Virus record (IMG/VR): IMGVR_UViG_2695420746_000008
Length of the DNA stretch: 6,217 bases
Direction: 5' to 3' (one strand)
From: a virus
Taxonomy: Duplodnaviria; Heunggongvirae; Uroviricota; Caudoviricetes
Below the pieces are notes generated by a model. That model did not search any database. It had not been told where the DNA came from and worked only from the letters and a program-made list of their open reading frames with translations. The translations under genes and the position numbers were made by a program. Positions 1-6,217 of this stretch are shown piece by piece; position 1 is the first letter of the stretch, and each line of letters begins with the position of its first letter.

Positions 1-437
1 GCCCATACCGGCGGCTTACCATCCGGATACTGGATCTTGTTTGTAAAAACCTCGCTTTCAATAAATTTTTTTCCGTGACAGCAGGGGCACTGTTTTTTGC
101 TCGCCGCGCTACGGGCATAATCTTCAAACGCATACGAAGCCATAATACGCATCACTGCCGGTTTTATTTCTGCCGGGAGTTTTCTTAACGCCGCCACGCG
201 ATCACACCGACTGAGTGCATATTCTGTCAGCAATTCTGTTGCCCGCTCTCTGTCATTCATACTAATGCCCATTTTCCCAAGGAACGCAGAAACCCCCATC
301 TCAGCCCGATTCTGTGTCATGCCCTGCGCGGCCATCACATCAGTGATACTCAGCGCATCTTTCGACGTTGAGGCCGATGCATCAGTCAGGCCGGGGGATT
401 TTGGGGAGTAGTATTTCGGTAAATCTTCCAGTTTCAT
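1..437 (-). CDS. Antitermination protein Q (lambda Q family), N-terminal ~145 codons; 3' end of the gene lies beyond the window start
   Basis: Minus-strand ATG at 437..435 overlaps the rusA stop (ATGA). The frame stays open to position 1. My translation MKLEDLPKYYSPKSPGLTDASASTSKDALSITDVMAAQGM...ASYAFEDYARSAASKKQCPCCHGKKF parallels the lambda Q N-terminus (HSPKSP, GTDVMAA, CxxCHG) as I remember it. Absent from the ORF track because it is truncated by the window edge. Confidence 0.85.
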   Translation of the reverse strand, partial: MKLEDLPKYYSPKSPGLTDASASTSKDALSITDVMAAQGMTQNRAEMGVSAFLGKMGISMNDRERATELLTEYALSRCDRVAALRKLPAEIKPAVMRIMASYAFEDYARSAASKKQCPCCHGKKFIESEVFTNKIQYPDGKPPVW

Positions 438-814
438 TTTTTGACCTGCCCTTCAAGCATTATGGGATAAATCTTCACCCCCAGACGTCCACCAGATACT
501 GGCTGACCACGAACGATATTGATTTCATCAAACTGCTCATCGTCCATTAGCAACCCCGCATGCGTCAGCGCATCCAGCGGCGCTTTCAGAATATTGTCCA
601 GGTCACGGCGGCGCTTATCCGGTGGTTCTGCAATAATTTTTATTGCCAACCTTCCGGACAGGCTTAATTTCAGCCGCTGCTGGCGAACAATAAGCGCCAC
701 TGCCCGGCGATAACGCTCCCCGGCTTTTGATACAAAATATGTGCTGCCACGACGACGCCAGTAAGTGTTCACCGTCGGCGGGTAAGGTAAAACAAATTCT
801 ATGCGCTCGGTCAT
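434..814 (-). CDS. rusA: RusA-family Holliday junction resolvase (crossover junction endodeoxyribonuclease)
   Basis: 126-aa ORF from the track. It contains the RusA-type acidic motif (PDKRRRDLDNILKAPLDAL...DDEQ) and is similar in length to E. coli RusA (120 aa). ATG at 814 directly follows the stop of the upstream gene (TAA|ATG) and its own stop overlaps the Q start. Confidence 0.9.
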   Translation of the reverse strand: MTERIEFVLPYPPTVNTYWRRRGSTYFVSKAGERYRRAVALIVRQQRLKLSLSGRLAIKIIAEPPDKRRRDLDNILKAPLDALTHAGLLMDDEQFDEINIVRGQPVSGGRLGVKIYPIMLEGQVKK

Positions 815-1873
815 TTATGCTTTCCACTTCAGAACACCCGAATTTCTCGCGTGCATTAAAAAACGAATCAGCAACAACAGCTGACTGCCGTGTTTCTCTT
901 CAAAATCTTTTACTCCGGCATGTAGTTCGTTACGGCATTTACGGCATAACGGAATAACAAACAAATCATCAGCCTTTGTTCCCATCCCTCCCAGTCCATG
1001 ACCAATGATGTGATGCGGATCATCTGCCTGATTGCCACACGTCATGCATTTCTGCGTTTTTACCCAGCGCGTGTATACAGGCATCTCTTCCCGTTGTGAT
1101 TTCTGGCGCTGGAGATACTGAGCCGGTGACTCCGGATCAACGGCAATGCTGACCACCGTCTTTTCCTGTGGTGGGTTCTGTTGCTGGTGGACGTGAGGCA
1201 GTAACGCAATATTTTTTGTGCGCTGCTTCAGTATGCTGGTGGCTGTCTGCTCTCCCGGTATGATGTCGCTTTCACTGTACACAGAGCGAATTTTTTCCGC
1301 ACGCAACCCCAGCGAACGACGTAATACCGCTTCCGGTAGCGCGTCCGCCACCTGATTGCGGACCGCCCACCAGGATAATTCAGCCAGAGATAATTCACGC
1401 TCCTGCGTACCGCTTATTGCGTGACCGATGACGTCAATCATCCATGCTGACAGGTTTTGATGAGCAAGTTGCTCGAGTGATTCGGATGTCTGGTCACGCA
1501 GCTGGTTGTCGCAGTGCCAGCACAACACCATTGCGCCGGTACCATAACGGTGAATGACGGTTTCGCTGTGATGATAATCGCCGTGTGGCCACTGGCAGGA
1601 TTTAATATGGCGCAACAGCCAGTCAGACAATGCACCAGCACCACCAGCAGCACGAATCACCCGTGCGTTACTGAAAAACGGCAGCAATGTTTTGTCTTCC
1701 ACCAGCGGCTGGCGAGCGGCAGGAACGACCCCGGACGGCAGATTACGCATGCTTTTTGGTTCCGGCTCCACCAGTATTCTGCCGTTATGGAATGCTGACA
1801 TTGATTCACGGCCTGGCTTAACGATAACCAGACCGAGTTCCGGTACCAGAACAGGTCGAAGTAATACCCGCAC
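815..1873 (-). CDS. DUF968-family prophage protein (YdfU-like) with Cys/His-rich HNH-like motifs
   Basis: 352-aa ORF. The start is GTG at 1873, preceded by GGAGG at 1878-1882. Codon pattern is G-rich at first positions. It has CWHCDNQ and CMTCGNQADDPHHIIGH...CRKCRNELH motifs. Position between a rem-like ORF and Q matches ydfU in K-12 Qin (recollection). An internal ATG start (MSAFHNG, about 1801) cannot be excluded. Confidence 0.8.
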   Translation of the reverse strand: MRVLLRPVLVPELGLVIVKPGRESMSAFHNGRILVEPEPKSMRNLPSGVVPAARQPLVEDKTLLPFFSNARVIRAAGGAGALSDWLLRHIKSCQWPHGDYHHSETVIHRYGTGAMVLCWHCDNQLRDQTSESLEQLAHQNLSAWMIDVIGHAISGTQERELSLAELSWWAVRNQVADALPEAVLRRSLGLRAEKIRSVYSESDIIPGEQTATSILKQRTKNIALLPHVHQQQNPPQEKTVVSIAVDPESPAQYLQRQKSQREEMPVYTRWVKTQKCMTCGNQADDPHHIIGHGLGGMGTKADDLFVIPLCRKCRNELHAGVKDFEEKHGSQLLLLIRFLMHARNSGVLKWKA

Positions 1874-2592: not shown

Positions 2593-2631
2593 CGGGTTAA
2601 GTGCGGGTGCGTTGAGGATGCCTGACACATC
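2592..2631. repeat. 40-nt direct repeat, copy B; candidate fbi-like 3' element of the hok mRNA
   Basis: Identical to 2399-2438. Its minus-strand sense (..ccucaacgcacccgcac..) is complementary to the predicted hok mRNA 5' end at 2988-3003 over about 15 nt with one bulge. Confidence 0.85.
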
Positions 2632-2673
2632 AGAGGTGGGCGGGGATGGGATCAGCTCCCCGCCCGGTCACTC

Positions 2674-2829
2674 TTACTTCCTGGATTCGTAGTCTACGAA
2701 GACAGCGACCTCCGTCTGGCCGGTTCGGATTCGTACCTCACAGAGGTCTTTCCTCGTTACCAGTGCCGTCACTATGACGGTTAAACAGATGACGATCAGG
2801 GCGATTAACATCGCCTTTTGCTGCTTCAT
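2674..2829 (-). CDS. hok: Hok-family type I toxin (51 aa, membrane-active small protein)
   Basis: Translation MKQQKAMLIALIVICLTVIVTALVTRKDLCEVRIRTGQTEVAVFVDYESRK is near-identical over the first ~44 residues to HokD/RelF of E. coli K-12 as I recall it. ATG at 2829 with AAGGAGAAG upstream; TAA stop at 2674-2676. Confidence 0.9.
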   Translation of the reverse strand: MKQQKAMLIALIVICLTVIVTALVTRKDLCEVRIRTGQTEVAVFVDYESRK

Positions 2830-2886
2830 AGCCTGCTTCTCCTTGCCTTTCGGCATGTAAGAGGCTAACCTACATGTGCAAAGCAT
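2674..2886 (-). CDS. mok: Mok-like in-frame upstream extension of hok (70 codons), expected to couple hok translation
   Basis: Track ORF of 70 aa in the hok frame. Its N-terminal extension MLCTCRLASYMPKGKEKQA resembles the MokC extension (MLNTCRVPLTDRKVKEKRA, from memory). Whether it is translated as such is inferred from hok/sok biology. Confidence 0.55.
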   Translation of the reverse strand: MLCTCRLASYMPKGKEKQAMKQQKAMLIALIVICLTVIVTALVTRKDLCEVRIRTGQTEVAVFVDYESRK

Positions 2887-2987
2887 GAAATTGGCCTCAG
2901 ATTAATGTTAAGCGTCTTGCCGGACGCGTAATGTTAACTGGGGCTTTTCTCTATCTGCCTTTTGGTGTTCATGCCTGAAGCAGATAG

Positions 2988-3003
2988 CCTCAAGCACCCG
3001 CAG
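2988..3003 (-). promoter_or_regulatory. tac-like 5' element of the hok mRNA, complementary to the 3' repeat element
   Basis: Plus-strand cctcaagcacccgcag (2988-3003) matches the minus-sense repeat ccucaacgcacccgcac at 15 of 16 positions with one indel. The mRNA 5' end can therefore pair with the 3' element, as in hok tac/fbi fold-back inhibition. Confidence 0.4.
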
Positions 3004-3005
3004 TC

Positions 3006-3035
3006 ATTCTACTTACCTCGCCAATATGAAATCAA
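3006..3035 (-). promoter_or_regulatory. Candidate hok promoter (TTGATT-18 nt-TAGAAT), predicted TSS near 2999
   Basis: Minus-strand -35 TTGATT at 3035..3030 and -10 TAGAAT at 3011..3006. The predicted start places the tac-like element at the extreme 5' end and gives a transcript of about 420 nt, consistent with known hok mRNAs. Confidence 0.4.
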
Positions 3036-3056
3036 TCAGAAAGGTGCCCCATAAAA

Positions 3057-3743
3057 TCACTCCTTCTCTTCTTTACCGTAGTGGAGTTGACCAATTTTGA
3101 TAAGAGGGCGTCCCTGAGATTTGCGGTGTAGATTGGTATCGCGCAGAGAATACACACAGCCACAATATTCCTGCTGATAGAATTTTTCGCGCTTGCTGAT
3201 TTCAATCATACGGGACGAGCCGCCCTGCTTGCGCCAGTTATAATCCCAGTACACCATGCCCGGATAATGCGCGACGGCTCGCCGCCCACAGTCGTTAACC
3301 TGCTGCATATTTTTCCAGCGTGAAATGCCCAGTGAACTGCTGATCACACTGAAACCATTTTCAGCGGCGTACAGCGCTGTCCGCTCAAAACGCATGTCAA
3401 AACACATGGTGCAACGGATCCCTCGTTCGGGCTCCCATTCCATTCCTTTGGCTCGTTCAAACCAGTTGTCTGTGTCGTAATCAGCATCAATAAACGGCAC
3501 GCCGTGTTGTTCAGCAAAGCGAATATTCTCATCCTTACGAATTAAATACTCTTTCTGAGGATGAATGTTCGGGTTGTAGAAAAAGATGGTGTAGTCGATT
3601 CCCGAGGCCTGAAGCGCCTCCATCACCTCACCGGAACATGGAGCACAGCAAGAGTGCAGTAGTAGTTTGTTTGCCCCGTTTGGGAGCTCCAATTTGGGCC
3701 GTTTGAAATCAGCAACTGTCATAAATATGTTTATTGGGGTCAT
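3057..3743 (-). CDS. queH: QueH-like protein (DUF208; epoxyqueuosine reductase family, Fe-S)
   Basis: 228-aa ORF with the N-terminal [11 protein letters not shown] motif that I recognise as the DUF208/QueH hallmark, plus additional Cys residues (CTMCFD, CGC). No obvious Shine-Dalgarno before the ATG at 3743; an alternative ATG is at 3722. The family call rests on motif recollection only. Confidence 0.7.
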
Positions 3744-3890
3744 AAAAATATCAAAGAGTGTAGCATTAGAACGGGGCTATCGGAAACAGATGTGTGACTG
3801 CTCCCCGCCCTTTCGGGTGGTCTCCTGATGATTTGAGGGTGCAGAAATCCCTCCGGTTAAGGATTAAATTTTTAACAGTGCTAAATTTAA

Positions 3891-4304
3891 TTATTCAGTT
3901 CTGGATTTTGTCGCCCTGCGTATCCGCGCTTTCGCGTTACGCTCAATCTGTATCAGCTTTTCTATATTTCTCCGCCTTTCCTGTTCCTCCTGGCGCAATA
4001 GCCTTACATCATCTGCCAGTCTGGTTTCTCTTTTTGCCACAGAGAGCATCCAGTCAAACGGCTCCACAACCGCACCGCAGATTTTACAGCGGACCTGACG
4101 CTCTTTTTCGTCAACCCGGACAGAGGCGTGATGGCAATATGGTCTTTCCGATGGCTCATAAAGAAAATTAACCTGATTACGAGGGTCATCCTCTTTTACC
4201 GGAAATAAAACGATATTGCTTAACTCATCTTCTGGTTTTATTTCCATGCTCCTCTCCTTTGATGCGAATGCCAGCGGTAATTGAAGCCTGATAGCTAATT
4301 TCAT
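3891..4304 (-). CDS. Hypothetical zinc-ribbon protein with basic coiled-coil C-terminus (137 aa; 118 aa if started at ATG 4247)
   Basis: Track ORF. It has a C-x-HH...C-x2-C cluster (YCHHASVRVDEKERQVRCKICG) and an Arg/Glu-rich C-terminal helix. Two possible starts: ATG 4304 directly after the upstream stop (TGA|ATG, GGAGG 10 nt upstream) or ATG 4247 (AAGGAGAGGAG upstream). Confidence 0.65.
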   Translation of the reverse strand: MKLAIRLQLPLAFASKERSMEIKPEDELSNIVLFPVKEDDPRNQVNFLYEPSERPYCHHASVRVDEKERQVRCKICGAVVEPFDWMLSVAKRETRLADDVRLLRQEEQERRRNIEKLIQIERNAKARIRRATKSRTE

Positions 4305-4727
4305 TCACAGTATCGCCTCCTGAAAATTACCCTGATAGAAAGCCAGTACACGCTGCATAGCTTCGCTCTTCCGGCACTCGCGACAGATTATATTCAGGCG
4401 CCTGTCGTAGCGGCGTATTTCTCCGTCAGGTAATGACCAGATAAGGTCCGGATCAACAACAACCGGTTTCCTCACCTTTACTCTCGAGAGTTTTTTGCGG
4501 GCGCTTTGCCAGTCCTTGCGAGCCTGTTCAGACGGGAATAAGCCGTAGCCAGAATTATATACATCACCACTTGCGACCAGTTCTATGCATAAGCGACCGA
4601 CAGACGCACGACTGATACCTGTTTCATCTGACAACTGCCGAATCGTGACCCGACCGTCCTGATGCACGAGTTCCACAATTCGCGTCTTCAGTTCTTCCCG
4701 CTGTTCGGGAGTAAAAGGTTTCGCCAT
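4305..4727 (-). CDS. Hypothetical winged-HTH DNA-binding protein (140 aa) with C-terminal CxxC
   Basis: Track ORF with ATG at 4727 and AGGAGGA 4 nt upstream. N-terminal HTH-like segment (RVTIRQLSDETGISRASVGRLCIEL) and C-terminal CRECRK. The stop abuts the next gene. Confidence 0.7.
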   Translation of the reverse strand: MAKPFTPEQREELKTRIVELVHQDGRVTIRQLSDETGISRASVGRLCIELVASGDVYNSGYGLFPSEQARKDWQSARKKLSRVKVRKPVVVDPDLIWSLPDGEIRRYDRRLNIICRECRKSEAMQRVLAFYQGNFQEAIL

Positions 4728-4741
4728 AAATCCTCCTGAAA

Positions 4742-5488
4742 CTACTTAACAACCCTCGAATGGCTAACATTCGGACGCCAGCTCTCCCAGTTAAAATTCA
4801 CCCAGCGCCCGCCGTTCATGACCATGCGATCCATCACCCGCTCGCCGAGCAATGTTTTCATCACCTCATAGTTCAGGTTTGTCAGCATCCCCACGCTGCG
4901 CATCGACGCTGTCCGGCGATCAACAATCTGGTGCAGCACCACCTGCTCGTTTTTCGTCTCGCGCTGAATGCCAATTTCATCAAGAACCAGCAGATCCACT
5001 TCGCACAGCTCCCGCAAAAATTTTTCGCCTGACTGCCCGTCGTCATAGCTGGCGTGCAGGGCGCTCATAACATCAGCCACGGTAACCACAATCACTGTCT
5101 GACCGTCTTTCAGCAGGCGATTCCCGATAGCTGCCGCTAAGTGATTCTTCCCGGTACCAGGTTTTCCGCTGAACGCAAAATTTGTACACCCGGTCATCAG
5201 TTCATCGGCGATGGATTTCGCCTGGCTTAACGCGTATCGCTGGCCGTCGTTCTGCACCTGGTAATTCGCAAACGAGCATTTACGGTGCAACGGCTGGATG
5301 CCTGAGCGATTCAGAATTTTTTCCACCCGCAACTGGCGATTCAGGCGGTTGATCTCCTCGCTACGTTTCTGGCCTTCAGCAAGTTGCCACTCGCGCCACT
5401 CCGCTACCGTTCTGAATGGGGCGGTTACATGTGGCGGGGTCAGTCGGCGGATGCGTTCCAGAACGCCGCCTGTCGCAATATTTTTCAT
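4742..5488 (-). CDS. DnaC-like replicative helicase loader (AAA+ ATPase; phage P-function analogue)
   Basis: 248 aa. Walker A FSGKPGTGKNHLAAAI and Walker B DLLVLDEIG are present. The protein is collinear with E. coli DnaC along its whole length (e.g. LTNLNYEVMKTLLGERVMDRM vs LTNSNMEEMTKLLGERVMDRM, from memory). Confidence 0.93.
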   Translation of the reverse strand: MKNIATGGVLERIRRLTPPHVTAPFRTVAEWREWQLAEGQKRSEEINRLNRQLRVEKILNRSGIQPLHRKCSFANYQVQNDGQRYALSQAKSIADELMTGCTNFAFSGKPGTGKNHLAAAIGNRLLKDGQTVIVVTVADVMSALHASYDDGQSGEKFLRELCEVDLLVLDEIGIQRETKNEQVVLHQIVDRRTASMRSVGMLTNLNYEVMKTLLGERVMDRMVMNGGRWVNFNWESWRPNVSHSRVVK

Positions 5489-5494
5489 GGTCCG

Positions 5495-6217
5495 TTACCC
5501 CCTGAAGCCTGGCGGGATCGCACTGTCCGGCAACGAGACGGTGTTAACCTGTCGGAGCAACGTCTCAGGCCGAACACCTTTCGGCGCGAACAGGCCCTGG
5601 TATTCATTGGCGATGCTGTGTCGAATCACCTGCTCAGGTGTAAAACCCTGCTGACGGAATTTTTCCAGTTCCCGTATCGCCCCGTTAGCGCCCTGCTCCG
5701 TTCGAATCGGTTTTCGCAATGCCTGTCTGAACCGGACCCACTCATGCCAGAGTGTTTCCGGCAACCAATCGGGCAGCTCAATAGCCTCCGGCTCGAATTT
5801 TTTAGACGCTCGTTTTTGGCGAGGGGGAGATCAGTATTTAGATCTTCCTCTTCCTCTTCCTCTGGTAACGCTTTTTGATCCGTTTGTGTAACGCTGGCAG
5901 CGTTACCTTTTCGTTTCAGTTCGCGTATTTTTGTTACTCGCTCGTTTGTAACCGCCCGTTTTTTTTAGAGCTTTTTCCGTTATGACGTTCAAAGTTAGGT
6001 AGAGAAAGCCCTCCGTCATTTTCGACCAGCCATCCAACCTGAATTAACGCATCAGCAAAACCAGACATAAAAGTGATGCGATCTATTGCACTTTTTGTAA
6101 CGCCGCGAGCGTTACAATCTGCATTACCGTCTATCATTTGTTGATCCGCCCATGCCCAGAAGCGAATAACCTGAGGTAGCCTGAGTTTAACGGACACTCC
6201 TTCCTGAAATAGAATGG
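5495..6217 (-). pseudogene. Replication initiation protein with DnaT-like C-terminal domain (YdaU-like); frame broken by two -1 shifts at A-tracts; 5' end beyond the window
   Basis: Three consecutive minus-strand frames are needed: frame A (open from the window edge to TAA at 5934), frame C (about 5964 to 5770, KKRAVTNERVTKIRELKRKGNAASVTQTDQKALPEEEEEEDLNTDLPLAKNER) and frame B (5830 to 5495). Frame B has no ATG and only a TTG at 5764. Its C-terminus VNTVSLPDSAIPPGFRG matches the E. coli DnaT C-terminus VNTVSEPDSQIPPGFRG. Frame switches coincide with A8 (plus 5959-5966) and A6 (plus 5798-5803). Confidence 0.6.
5844..5861. repeat. (CTTCCT)3 hexanucleotide tandem repeat, encoding a Glu6 acidic linker on the minus strand
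   Basis: Direct reading: cttcct cttcct cttcct. In minus frame C this is GAG GAA GAG GAA GAG GAA. Confidence 0.9.

Follow-up and report, generated by a model that had tools for sequence, protein, structure and literature searches.

An intact QueH carried by a lambdoid prophage of Escherichia coli, a likely cobalamin-independent backup of QueG

Why would a lambdoid prophage of Escherichia coli carry a gene for a step of tRNA modification that its host already performs? The question is raised by a 6,217-nucleotide stretch of tailed-phage DNA (IMG/VR record IMGVR_UViG_2695420746_000008), which was analysed over its whole length and is called the window below. An open reading frame (ORF) at positions 3057-3743 had been read, from the letters alone, as a QueH-like (DUF208) iron-sulfur enzyme gene carried as prophage cargo; this sequence-only reading gave no strand, and the ORF lies on the minus strand. 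Our analysis confirms, by family and by predicted fold, that the window protein is a genuine and intact QueH. It is likely to be a phage-captured enzyme that backs up QueG, the reductase of epoxyqueuosine (oQ) found in E. coli, without using cobalamin. The data establish its family, fold, ligand conservation, genomic position, prevalence, purifying selection and origin by capture, and from them we infer its enzymatic activity, its cobalamin independence in this host, the timing of its expression and any fitness benefit.

The Pfam QueH profile, PF02677, matches the window protein at 220.6 bits (gathering cutoff 23.5; E=1.9e-65) over profile positions 1-174 of 175. This is a full-length match well above the cutoff, and it is the profile search that the sequence-only reading had suggested as a check. 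No other Pfam family matches the protein, a single domain of 221 amino acids (aa), and a search of NCBIfam release 20 with the window protein, in answer to the suggested check against QueH TIGRFAM models, returned no match. In a phmmer search of the Protein Data Bank (PDB), the crystal-structure sequences of Thermotoga maritima QueH were recovered at E=5e-22. An AlphaFold2 model, built on a 33-sequence alignment, has a predicted local distance difference test score of 95.3 and a predicted template modelling (TM) score of 0.91. When this model was compared with the PDB using Foldseek, it superposed on 7lc5/9d86 with a TM score of 0.92 (TM values from Foldseek are normalised to the target) and a root mean square deviation of 1.3 Å over 179 columns, and the next fold families, TtuA and argininosuccinate synthase, scored no higher than 0.53. 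RefSeq lists the protein as WP_012421537.1, "epoxyqueuosine reductase QueH". The HSCCAPCS motif noticed at the outset is present at residues 30-37, and the QueH/DUF208 identity is upheld by the Pfam score, the PDB sequence match, the fold match and the conserved cysteines. Because the family, fold and reaction are known and RefSeq names the exact protein QueH, the identification itself is already known. The enzyme is an ordinary one, and its vehicle is mildly unexpected.

The start of the gene is probably internal to the ORF. Comparison with homologs places it at Met8 (ATG 3722..3720), which gives a protein of 221 aa. The RefSeq coding sequences for queH are 666 nucleotides (nt) long, in support of Met8. 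The first residue of the Enterobacter hormaechei homolog aligns to Met8, alignments with homologs from other genera begin at residues 8-15, and codons 1-7 account for four of the nine residues at which the E. coli B allele differs. The GC content over queH (0.46-0.49) is the same as that of the flanks, and by this measure no compositional anomaly was seen. The gene and its metal-ligand motifs are listed here, with residues numbered on the 228-aa ORF.

3057..3743, minus strand: queH ORF, 228 aa from the first ATG; probable coding sequence 3057-3722, 221 aa, with a Met8 start (ORF list, Pfam, PDB match, AlphaFold2 model, RefSeq)
3633..3656, minus strand: HSCCAPCS codons (His30, Cys32, Cys33, Cys36), the N-terminal metal-ligand motif, read from the sequence
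3402..3413, minus strand: codons of the second cysteine pair, Cys111-x-x-Cys114 (IRCTMC); Cys in 90/93 and 88/93 representatives, invariant in the 33-sequence alignment
3156..3164, minus strand: codons of the C-terminal cysteine pair, Cys194-Gly-Cys196 (YCGC); family-wide in the 93-sequence alignment, invariant in the 33-sequence alignment

Conservation was assessed in two alignments. The first, of 93 sequences, combines the query and T. maritima QueH with 91 representatives, 165-300 aa in length, that came out of a scan of 1.84 billion proteins, and it leans toward relatives of the query. The second holds 33 sequences of 35-86% identity and is the one that also served as input to AlphaFold2. 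Cys32, Cys33 and Cys36 are conserved in 73-75 of 79 aligned representatives and are invariant in the second alignment, where the window protein keeps 17 of 17 invariant columns. Cys32, Cys33, Cys111, Cys114, Cys194 and Cys196 are kept in all 83 full-length alleles of the gene. Li et al. 2021 reportedly assigned cysteines in this CC...CxxC...CxC arrangement as ligands of a [4Fe-4S] cluster and an adjacent iron.

The T. maritima enzyme (PDB 7lc5, 7lc7, 9deu, 9d86 and 9dco) is 30% identical to the window protein and shares its fold and single-domain size class. Six cysteines are common to the two proteins, with Cys32/Cys33, Cys111/Cys114 and Cys194/Cys196 corresponding to C9/C10, the RCERC pair and the YCGC pair of T. 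maritima. The proteins differ in that the window QueH has an N-terminal extension of ~15 residues, a basic C-terminal tail of ~25 residues and Arg118 in place of a leucine, and in gene location, which is here a prophage and not a chromosomal housekeeping locus. They also differ at a functionally relevant position. Cys32, Cys33 and Cys36 align to T. maritima C9, C10 and D13, and the PDB holds the T. maritima variants C9S and D13N (9dco is D13N), which target two of these positions and mark that of Asp13 as functionally relevant. The window protein lacks an aspartate at the position of Asp13 and has Cys36 instead. Among the 79 aligned representatives of the query-biased sample, the residues listed for this column are 73 Cys, 2 Ala and one each of Asp, Ser and Lys. 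The dominance of cysteine in that sample makes the T. maritima Asp13 an outlier and not a family-defining residue. In the suggested check on cluster-ligating residues, the six cysteines are conserved and the aspartate is replaced by Cys36.

The host species already has an enzyme for the same reaction. Across 5426 complete E. coli genomes, queG is present in 5426 and queH in 995 (18%; 985 with at least 80% coverage), which bears out the premise that E. coli chromosomes normally use QueG. The queH copies are nearly always chromosomal and always named QueH in RefSeq. Carriers include E. coli B/REL606, E. coli C and O157:H7, and one and the same allele, that of E. coli B, is shared by REL606, ATCC 11303, E. 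coli C and ATCC 8739. QueG and QueH both catalyse the last step of queuosine (Q) synthesis (PMC5372724, PMC4646009), and the oQ-to-Q step performed by QueG depends on cobalamin (PMC4646009). QueH is unrelated to QueG and has been described as cobalamin-independent and iron-dependent (PMC5615194, PMC9508795, PMC6461909), and as a cobalamin-independent replacement for QueG (PMC5615194, PMC6461909). The two enzymes differ in sequence, in fold and in the requirement for vitamin B12 (cobalamin), and in E. coli queG is core whereas queH is accessory. E. coli is not known to make B12 de novo. Since every E. coli already has QueG, a prophage queH would give the cell a second route to Q.

We propose the following course of events. 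A Rac/Qin-type lambdoid phage lineage captured queH from an Enterobacterales chromosome, and the gene now travels as a ~0.74-kb cassette, mostly together with hok/sok, between the replication genes and the Q antiterminator. The prophage QueH, as a small iron-sulfur enzyme, would reduce oQ34 to Q34 without cobalamin on tRNA-Asp, -Asn, -His and -Tyr, which have GUN anticodons. It would thereby stand alongside QueG as a second, cobalamin-independent route to Q, and this route should count most for cells short of B12 or unable to import it. That the protein reduces oQ to Q without cobalamin is the most likely reading of its 80-92% identity to Enterobacterales QueH and its single domain. A comparable arrangement is found in Staphylococcus aureus, which natively has QueG and QueH with different expression profiles (PMC13443448). 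As there, and as in MetH/MetE pairs, two non-homologous enzymes with different cofactors would serve one step (PMC13443448, PMC6461909). The S. aureus pair is presented as belonging to the organism itself, whereas here a prophage brings in the second enzyme, as a plasmid does in Klebsiella.

The alleles of queH indicate that the gene is under strong purifying selection. All 83 of the 83 full-length alleles recovered (20 of them distinct) are intact, with every cysteine motif and with no stops or frameshifts. Relative to the window allele, dN/dS is 0.02-0.10 at dS 0.07-0.18, a range in which dN is biased downward by the ranking of IMG/VR loci on protein identity. The alleles selected on nucleotides instead, those of E. 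coli B, O157 and phage HannyBb, give 0.04-0.10. E. coli B has a decayed Qin prophage in which the genes next to queH are pseudogenes and queH itself is intact.

The relatives of the window protein point to a chromosomal source. Outside Escherichia and Shigella, the nearest are in Enterobacter, Scandinavium and Kluyvera (86-92% identity), followed by Serratia, Erwinia, Pectobacterium, Proteus and Providencia (80-87%). Lambdoid neighbours of queH occur only at Escherichia and Shigella loci among those compared. Serratia has a yciI-queH-tonB synteny at 9 loci, and in Erwinia, Pantoea and Izhakiella queH adjoins dcm at 13 loci; gene order of this kind marks these copies as vertically inherited housekeeping genes. 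Because the closest relatives sit in conserved Enterobacterales synteny, the prophage queH is a captured chromosomal housekeeping gene. The chromosomal proteins of Serratia, Erwinia/Pantoea, Proteus and Providencia have the same length and motifs as the window protein at 80-87% identity, and they are almost certainly the same enzyme. Where the chromosomal copies lie in conserved synteny, the window copy lies in a lambdoid early operon with sharp mosaic breakpoints.

The same clade of QueH is also found on 302 plasmids, 99 of them from Klebsiella. On the conjugative IncFIB/IncFII plasmid p90CM2-172k of Klebsiella pneumoniae (locus 5665-8340), queH encodes a protein of 92% aa identity and is flanked by two TonB-family fragments and an IS3 element, an arrangement that looks like a relic of the chromosomal yciI-queH-tonB locus. 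These comparisons indicate that mobile elements have captured queH more than once. Of two Enterobacter genomes, one has queH beside an integrase fragment and the other has it just downstream of icd, a gene well known as a phage attachment site. The queH of Enterobacter sp. ECC-175 follows icd and a chorismate mutase gene, and a match to the small RNA RyhB (74.3 bits, above gathering) lies ~0.8 kb downstream of it at 6481-6544 on the minus strand. The placement of the iron-responsive RyhB beside an iron-sulfur enzyme gene may be a coincidence. INPHARED holds 25 records with QueH relatives, mainly short unannotated gut contigs. Two of its entries are very large, at 328-379 kb (CAKLQH020000001.1 and CAKLQF020000001.1, "Acinetobacter phage MD-2021a"). 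Their QueH shares 78% identity with the window protein and is annotated "putative prophage protein", and their size suggests that they may include bacterial sequence.

The window is part of the early-right (nin-like) operon of a Rac/Qin-type lambdoid prophage. All of its genes lie on the minus strand, and the prophage order on that one strand is cro-like, ydaT, O-like, DnaC-like ydaV, DUF977, queH, hok/sok, DUF968, RusA and Q. A genome that is 99.5% identical over 2593-6172 shows the locus to be part of a lambdoid prophage that also has terminase, lysis genes and cro/cI-like regulators. In HannyBb, a temperate phage that has been isolated, queH is present at 96.5% identity in the same place and arrangement, annotated as hypothetical. 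The nin-region position first suggested is supported by this gene order and by HannyBb. The neighbours of queH in the window are as follows, in the direction of transcription.

window, minus strand: replication-initiator-like fragment, upstream of ydaV in the window gene order
4742-5488, minus strand: DnaC-like ydaV (window ORF)
4305..4727, minus strand: DUF977/Ren-like gene (Pfam DUF977, 116.5 bits; phrog_142), the usual upstream neighbour of queH
3891..4304, minus strand: zinc-ribbon-like ORF of 137 aa, between DUF977 and queH (phrog_1621, unknown function; a 118-aa hypothetical protein in RefSeq)
3744..3793, minus strand: conserved 50-nt leader that travels with queH; homology to the window begins exactly at 3793 in 62/80 IMG/VR loci
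2674..2999, minus strand: hok/mok toxin ORF (2674-2886; hok coding sequence ~2674-2829) and sok/leader region (2824-2999) (Pfam HOK_GEF, 79.9 bits; Rfam sok RF01794, 117 bits)
between hok/sok and DUF968 in the window gene order, minus strand: 94-aa ORF (window ORF)
815-1873, minus strand: DUF968/HNH (window ORF)
434-814, minus strand: RusA (window ORF)

The 137-aa ORF at 3891-4304 has a weak match to a TFIIB-type zinc ribbon, below the Pfam threshold. The hok/mok/sok-type module directly downstream of queH is complete, and its Rfam sok match shares the strand of hok, so that what it covers seems to be the leader of the hok mRNA and not an antisense gene. No tRNA genes were found in the window. 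The matching prophage of E. coli FDAARGOS_944 (locus 6102-6412) has a tRNA-Ile, -Arg, -Thr and -Gly cluster downstream of its Q-like region; we considered these phage tRNAs as QueH substrates and rejected them, as none of the four belongs to the queuosine family. The window also contains a run of N at 2442-2528, flanked by a 43-nt direct repeat (2399-2441 and 2593-2635; 98% identical) that is single-copy in reference genomes. The run and its repeat look like a scaffold gap between overlapping contig ends, and for this reason the window may join two contigs. Coverage of the window reaches 80% in no complete E. coli genome.

The slot occupied by queH, between the replication genes and hokD, is filled by relBE in K-12. 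The K-12 Qin order is relB-relE-hokD-rem-ydfU-Q and that of E. coli B is DUF977-(methyltransferase fragment)-queH-hokD-rem-DUF968-Q, and the window ceases to be homologous to K-12 Qin at a point 14 nt upstream of hokD. The two orders and the end of homology agree with the earlier placement of queH exactly where K-12 Qin has relBE upstream of hokD. Whereas relBE is a toxin-antitoxin module driven by an autoregulated promoter, queH encodes a metabolic enzyme, and no dedicated promoter was detected for it. K-12 Qin has only hokD, fused behind relBE, and lacks the hok leader region of the window. In the O157:H7 Z1768 locus (3806-5816), an NgoMIV-family restriction endonuclease and a cytosine methyltransferase lie downstream of queH and replace hok/sok. 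This replacement of hok by a restriction-modification system indicates that queH borders a cargo hotspot at which toxin-antitoxin and restriction-modification modules are swapped.

The boundaries of the cassette were examined in IMG/VR. A protein search found 188 viral contigs with QueH relatives, the best 80 of them 99-100% identical to the window protein, and a profile-based scan confirmed 214 relatives, the best 80 of which belong to the same E. coli prophage family at 99-100% identity. Junctions and neighbours were counted among the best 80 loci of the protein search, and the denominator 73 refers to those with enough flank. Recombination has recurred at position 3793, which lies 50 nt ahead of the first ATG. 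Upstream junctions are of four distinct types. DUF977 lies upstream of queH in 69/73 loci, and the 137-aa ORF intervenes in 14/73, all of the window's own junction type. A hok gene is found within 900 nt downstream of queH in 63/76.

Signals for independent expression were not found. Scanning and reading of the 3744..3793 leader gave no convincing promoter or Shine-Dalgarno sequence, and neither a sigma-70-like promoter upstream on the coding strand nor an intrinsic terminator after queH was detected in the window, O157:H7 or E. coli B, in scans that are consensus-based and crude and that a weak or non-sigma-70 promoter could escape. The gene had been called a moron. It does behave as dispensable mosaic cargo between conserved phage genes, being absent from K-12 Qin, present in 18% of genomes, bounded by the 3793 breakpoint and found with four junction types. 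The stricter sense of the term, an independently expressed cassette, is unsupported, given the negative result of the promoter and terminator scans. The position of queH in a pR-driven operon without signals of its own favours delayed-early expression on induction, and its retention in a decayed prophage argues for some expression in the resident state. Purifying selection in that decayed prophage is the sole hint of prophage expression, and an indirect one.

The benefit could instead accrue to the phage, which we regard as improbable in its own right and which is compatible with a backup-isozyme role. In this scheme, delayed-early queH expressed from pR would convert host oQ-tRNA to Q-tRNA, and would tune the decoding of NAU/NAC codons or pre-empt a Q-linked host response. 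The gene is co-oriented with and embedded in the early-right operon, has no promoter or terminator of its own and is present in an isolated phage, all of which would suit such a role. A preprint on Shewanella reports that phage infection raises queG expression, lowers oQ, raises Q and changes the translation of NAT-rich genes (10.64898/2026.03.05.709803), so that oQ-to-Q conversion is a regulated step during infection there, and queG frameshifts co-occurred with phage resistance in Vibrio anguillarum. However, both sets of data concern the host queG and not a phage gene. The NAT fraction is 0.57 in HannyBb late genes, 0.55 in its early genes and 0.55 in the host (7 host genes), which gives no NAU/NAC signal, and the intact queH under purifying selection in a defective prophage unable to make phage points to selection at the level of the host. 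It is still less probable that queH is a neutral passenger, hitch-hiking with hok/sok and the replication genes and useless in E. coli. The tight linkage to hok/sok (63/76 loci), the coverage of the reaction by QueG in every genome and the lack of expression signals in our scans are what one might expect of a passenger. The dN/dS of 0.02-0.10 over 83 intact alleles with all ligand residues kept is not, and neither is the retention of queH where a restriction-modification system replaces hok, nor the independent acquisition on Klebsiella plasmids.

The sequence-only reading had also allowed for another 7-deazaguanine substrate. Examples other than tRNA oQ would be a phage DNA modification or a nucleobase conjugate of defence or counter-defence. 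This we consider very improbable indeed. Phages do use 7-deazaguanine chemistry in DNA (PMC6884629), QueC-family proteins occur in defence systems (PMC13639016), and the hotspot with toxin-antitoxin and restriction-modification modules lies just downstream of queH. Against this, no DpdA/TGT, FolE or QueC/D/E is annotated in the 18.7-kb matching prophage or in the 41.7 of 45.3 kb of HannyBb that were inspected, and a DNA-modification role is ruled against by this absence of annotated partner genes. PADLOC-DB has no family matching QueH or the adjacent 137-aa ORF at E<=0.01, which likewise speaks against a role in defence. The protein is 80-92% identical to Enterobacterales QueH, which is syntenic in Serratia and Erwinia, and all invariant residues are kept. 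The suggestion of an alternative substrate thus found no support, either from partner genes or from sequence relationships. No DNA 7-deazaguanine derivative is known to carry an epoxide.

Several points weigh against a cobalamin-independent backup of QueG, which nonetheless remains the reading we favour. The only QueH with a solved structure, that of T. maritima, has an aspartate at the position of Cys36. Any benefit to the host requires that queH be expressed while the prophage is repressed, and the scans detected neither a promoter nor a terminator belonging to the gene. Cobalamin and preQ1 riboswitches were absent from the surroundings of queH in Rfam scans, run at E<=0.1 on the window and at the gathering threshold on 14 loci from other genera, and with no riboswitch near any copy there is no regulatory hint of B12 sparing. 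In the literature we found neither activity data for this protein or any Enterobacterales QueH nor a phenotypic difference between oQ and Q in E. coli.

Carriage of QueH on mobile elements has received little notice in phage resources. Hutinet et al. reported no QueA, QueG or QueH homologs in the deazaguanine viruses that they analysed (PMC6884629), and the searchable literature yielded no discussion of prophage- or plasmid-borne QueH in Enterobacteriaceae. The window protein falls in PHROG phrog_3217, which is labelled "unknown function" and whose 188-position profile starts at query residue 41. This start indicates that the PHROG gene calls begin at an internal methionine and so lose the CCAPC motif. 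Phage resources thus miss QueH, with PHROG 3217 unlabelled by function and the HannyBb gene hypothetical.

The gene is common (18% of genomes) and present in E. coli B/REL606, C and ATCC 8739, and K-12 Qin has relBE in its place. When B12 is left out of the medium, the balance of Q and oQ in the tRNA of queH-positive laboratory strains may therefore be different, a point relevant to studies of tRNA modification and possibly to heterologous expression. A tRNA-modification isozyme that is carried by prophages and plasmids and kept by purifying selection offers a genetic handle on what, if anything, sets oQ apart from Q in vivo. There is a wider and more tentative possibility, one that we think doubtful but worth stating: mobile elements (in E. 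coli and Shigella, prophages of the Qin/Rac type; in Klebsiella, IncF plasmids) may spread a cobalamin-independent oQ reductase among Enterobacteriaceae that otherwise depend on a B12-requiring enzyme. If this is true, tRNA queuosine status and NAU/NAC decoding would be an accessory-genome trait that differs by strain when B12 is limiting or BtuB is lost, and E. coli B and C would contrast in this respect with K-12. Alternatively, the phage itself may use the enzyme to reset the oQ/Q status of its host early in lytic growth.

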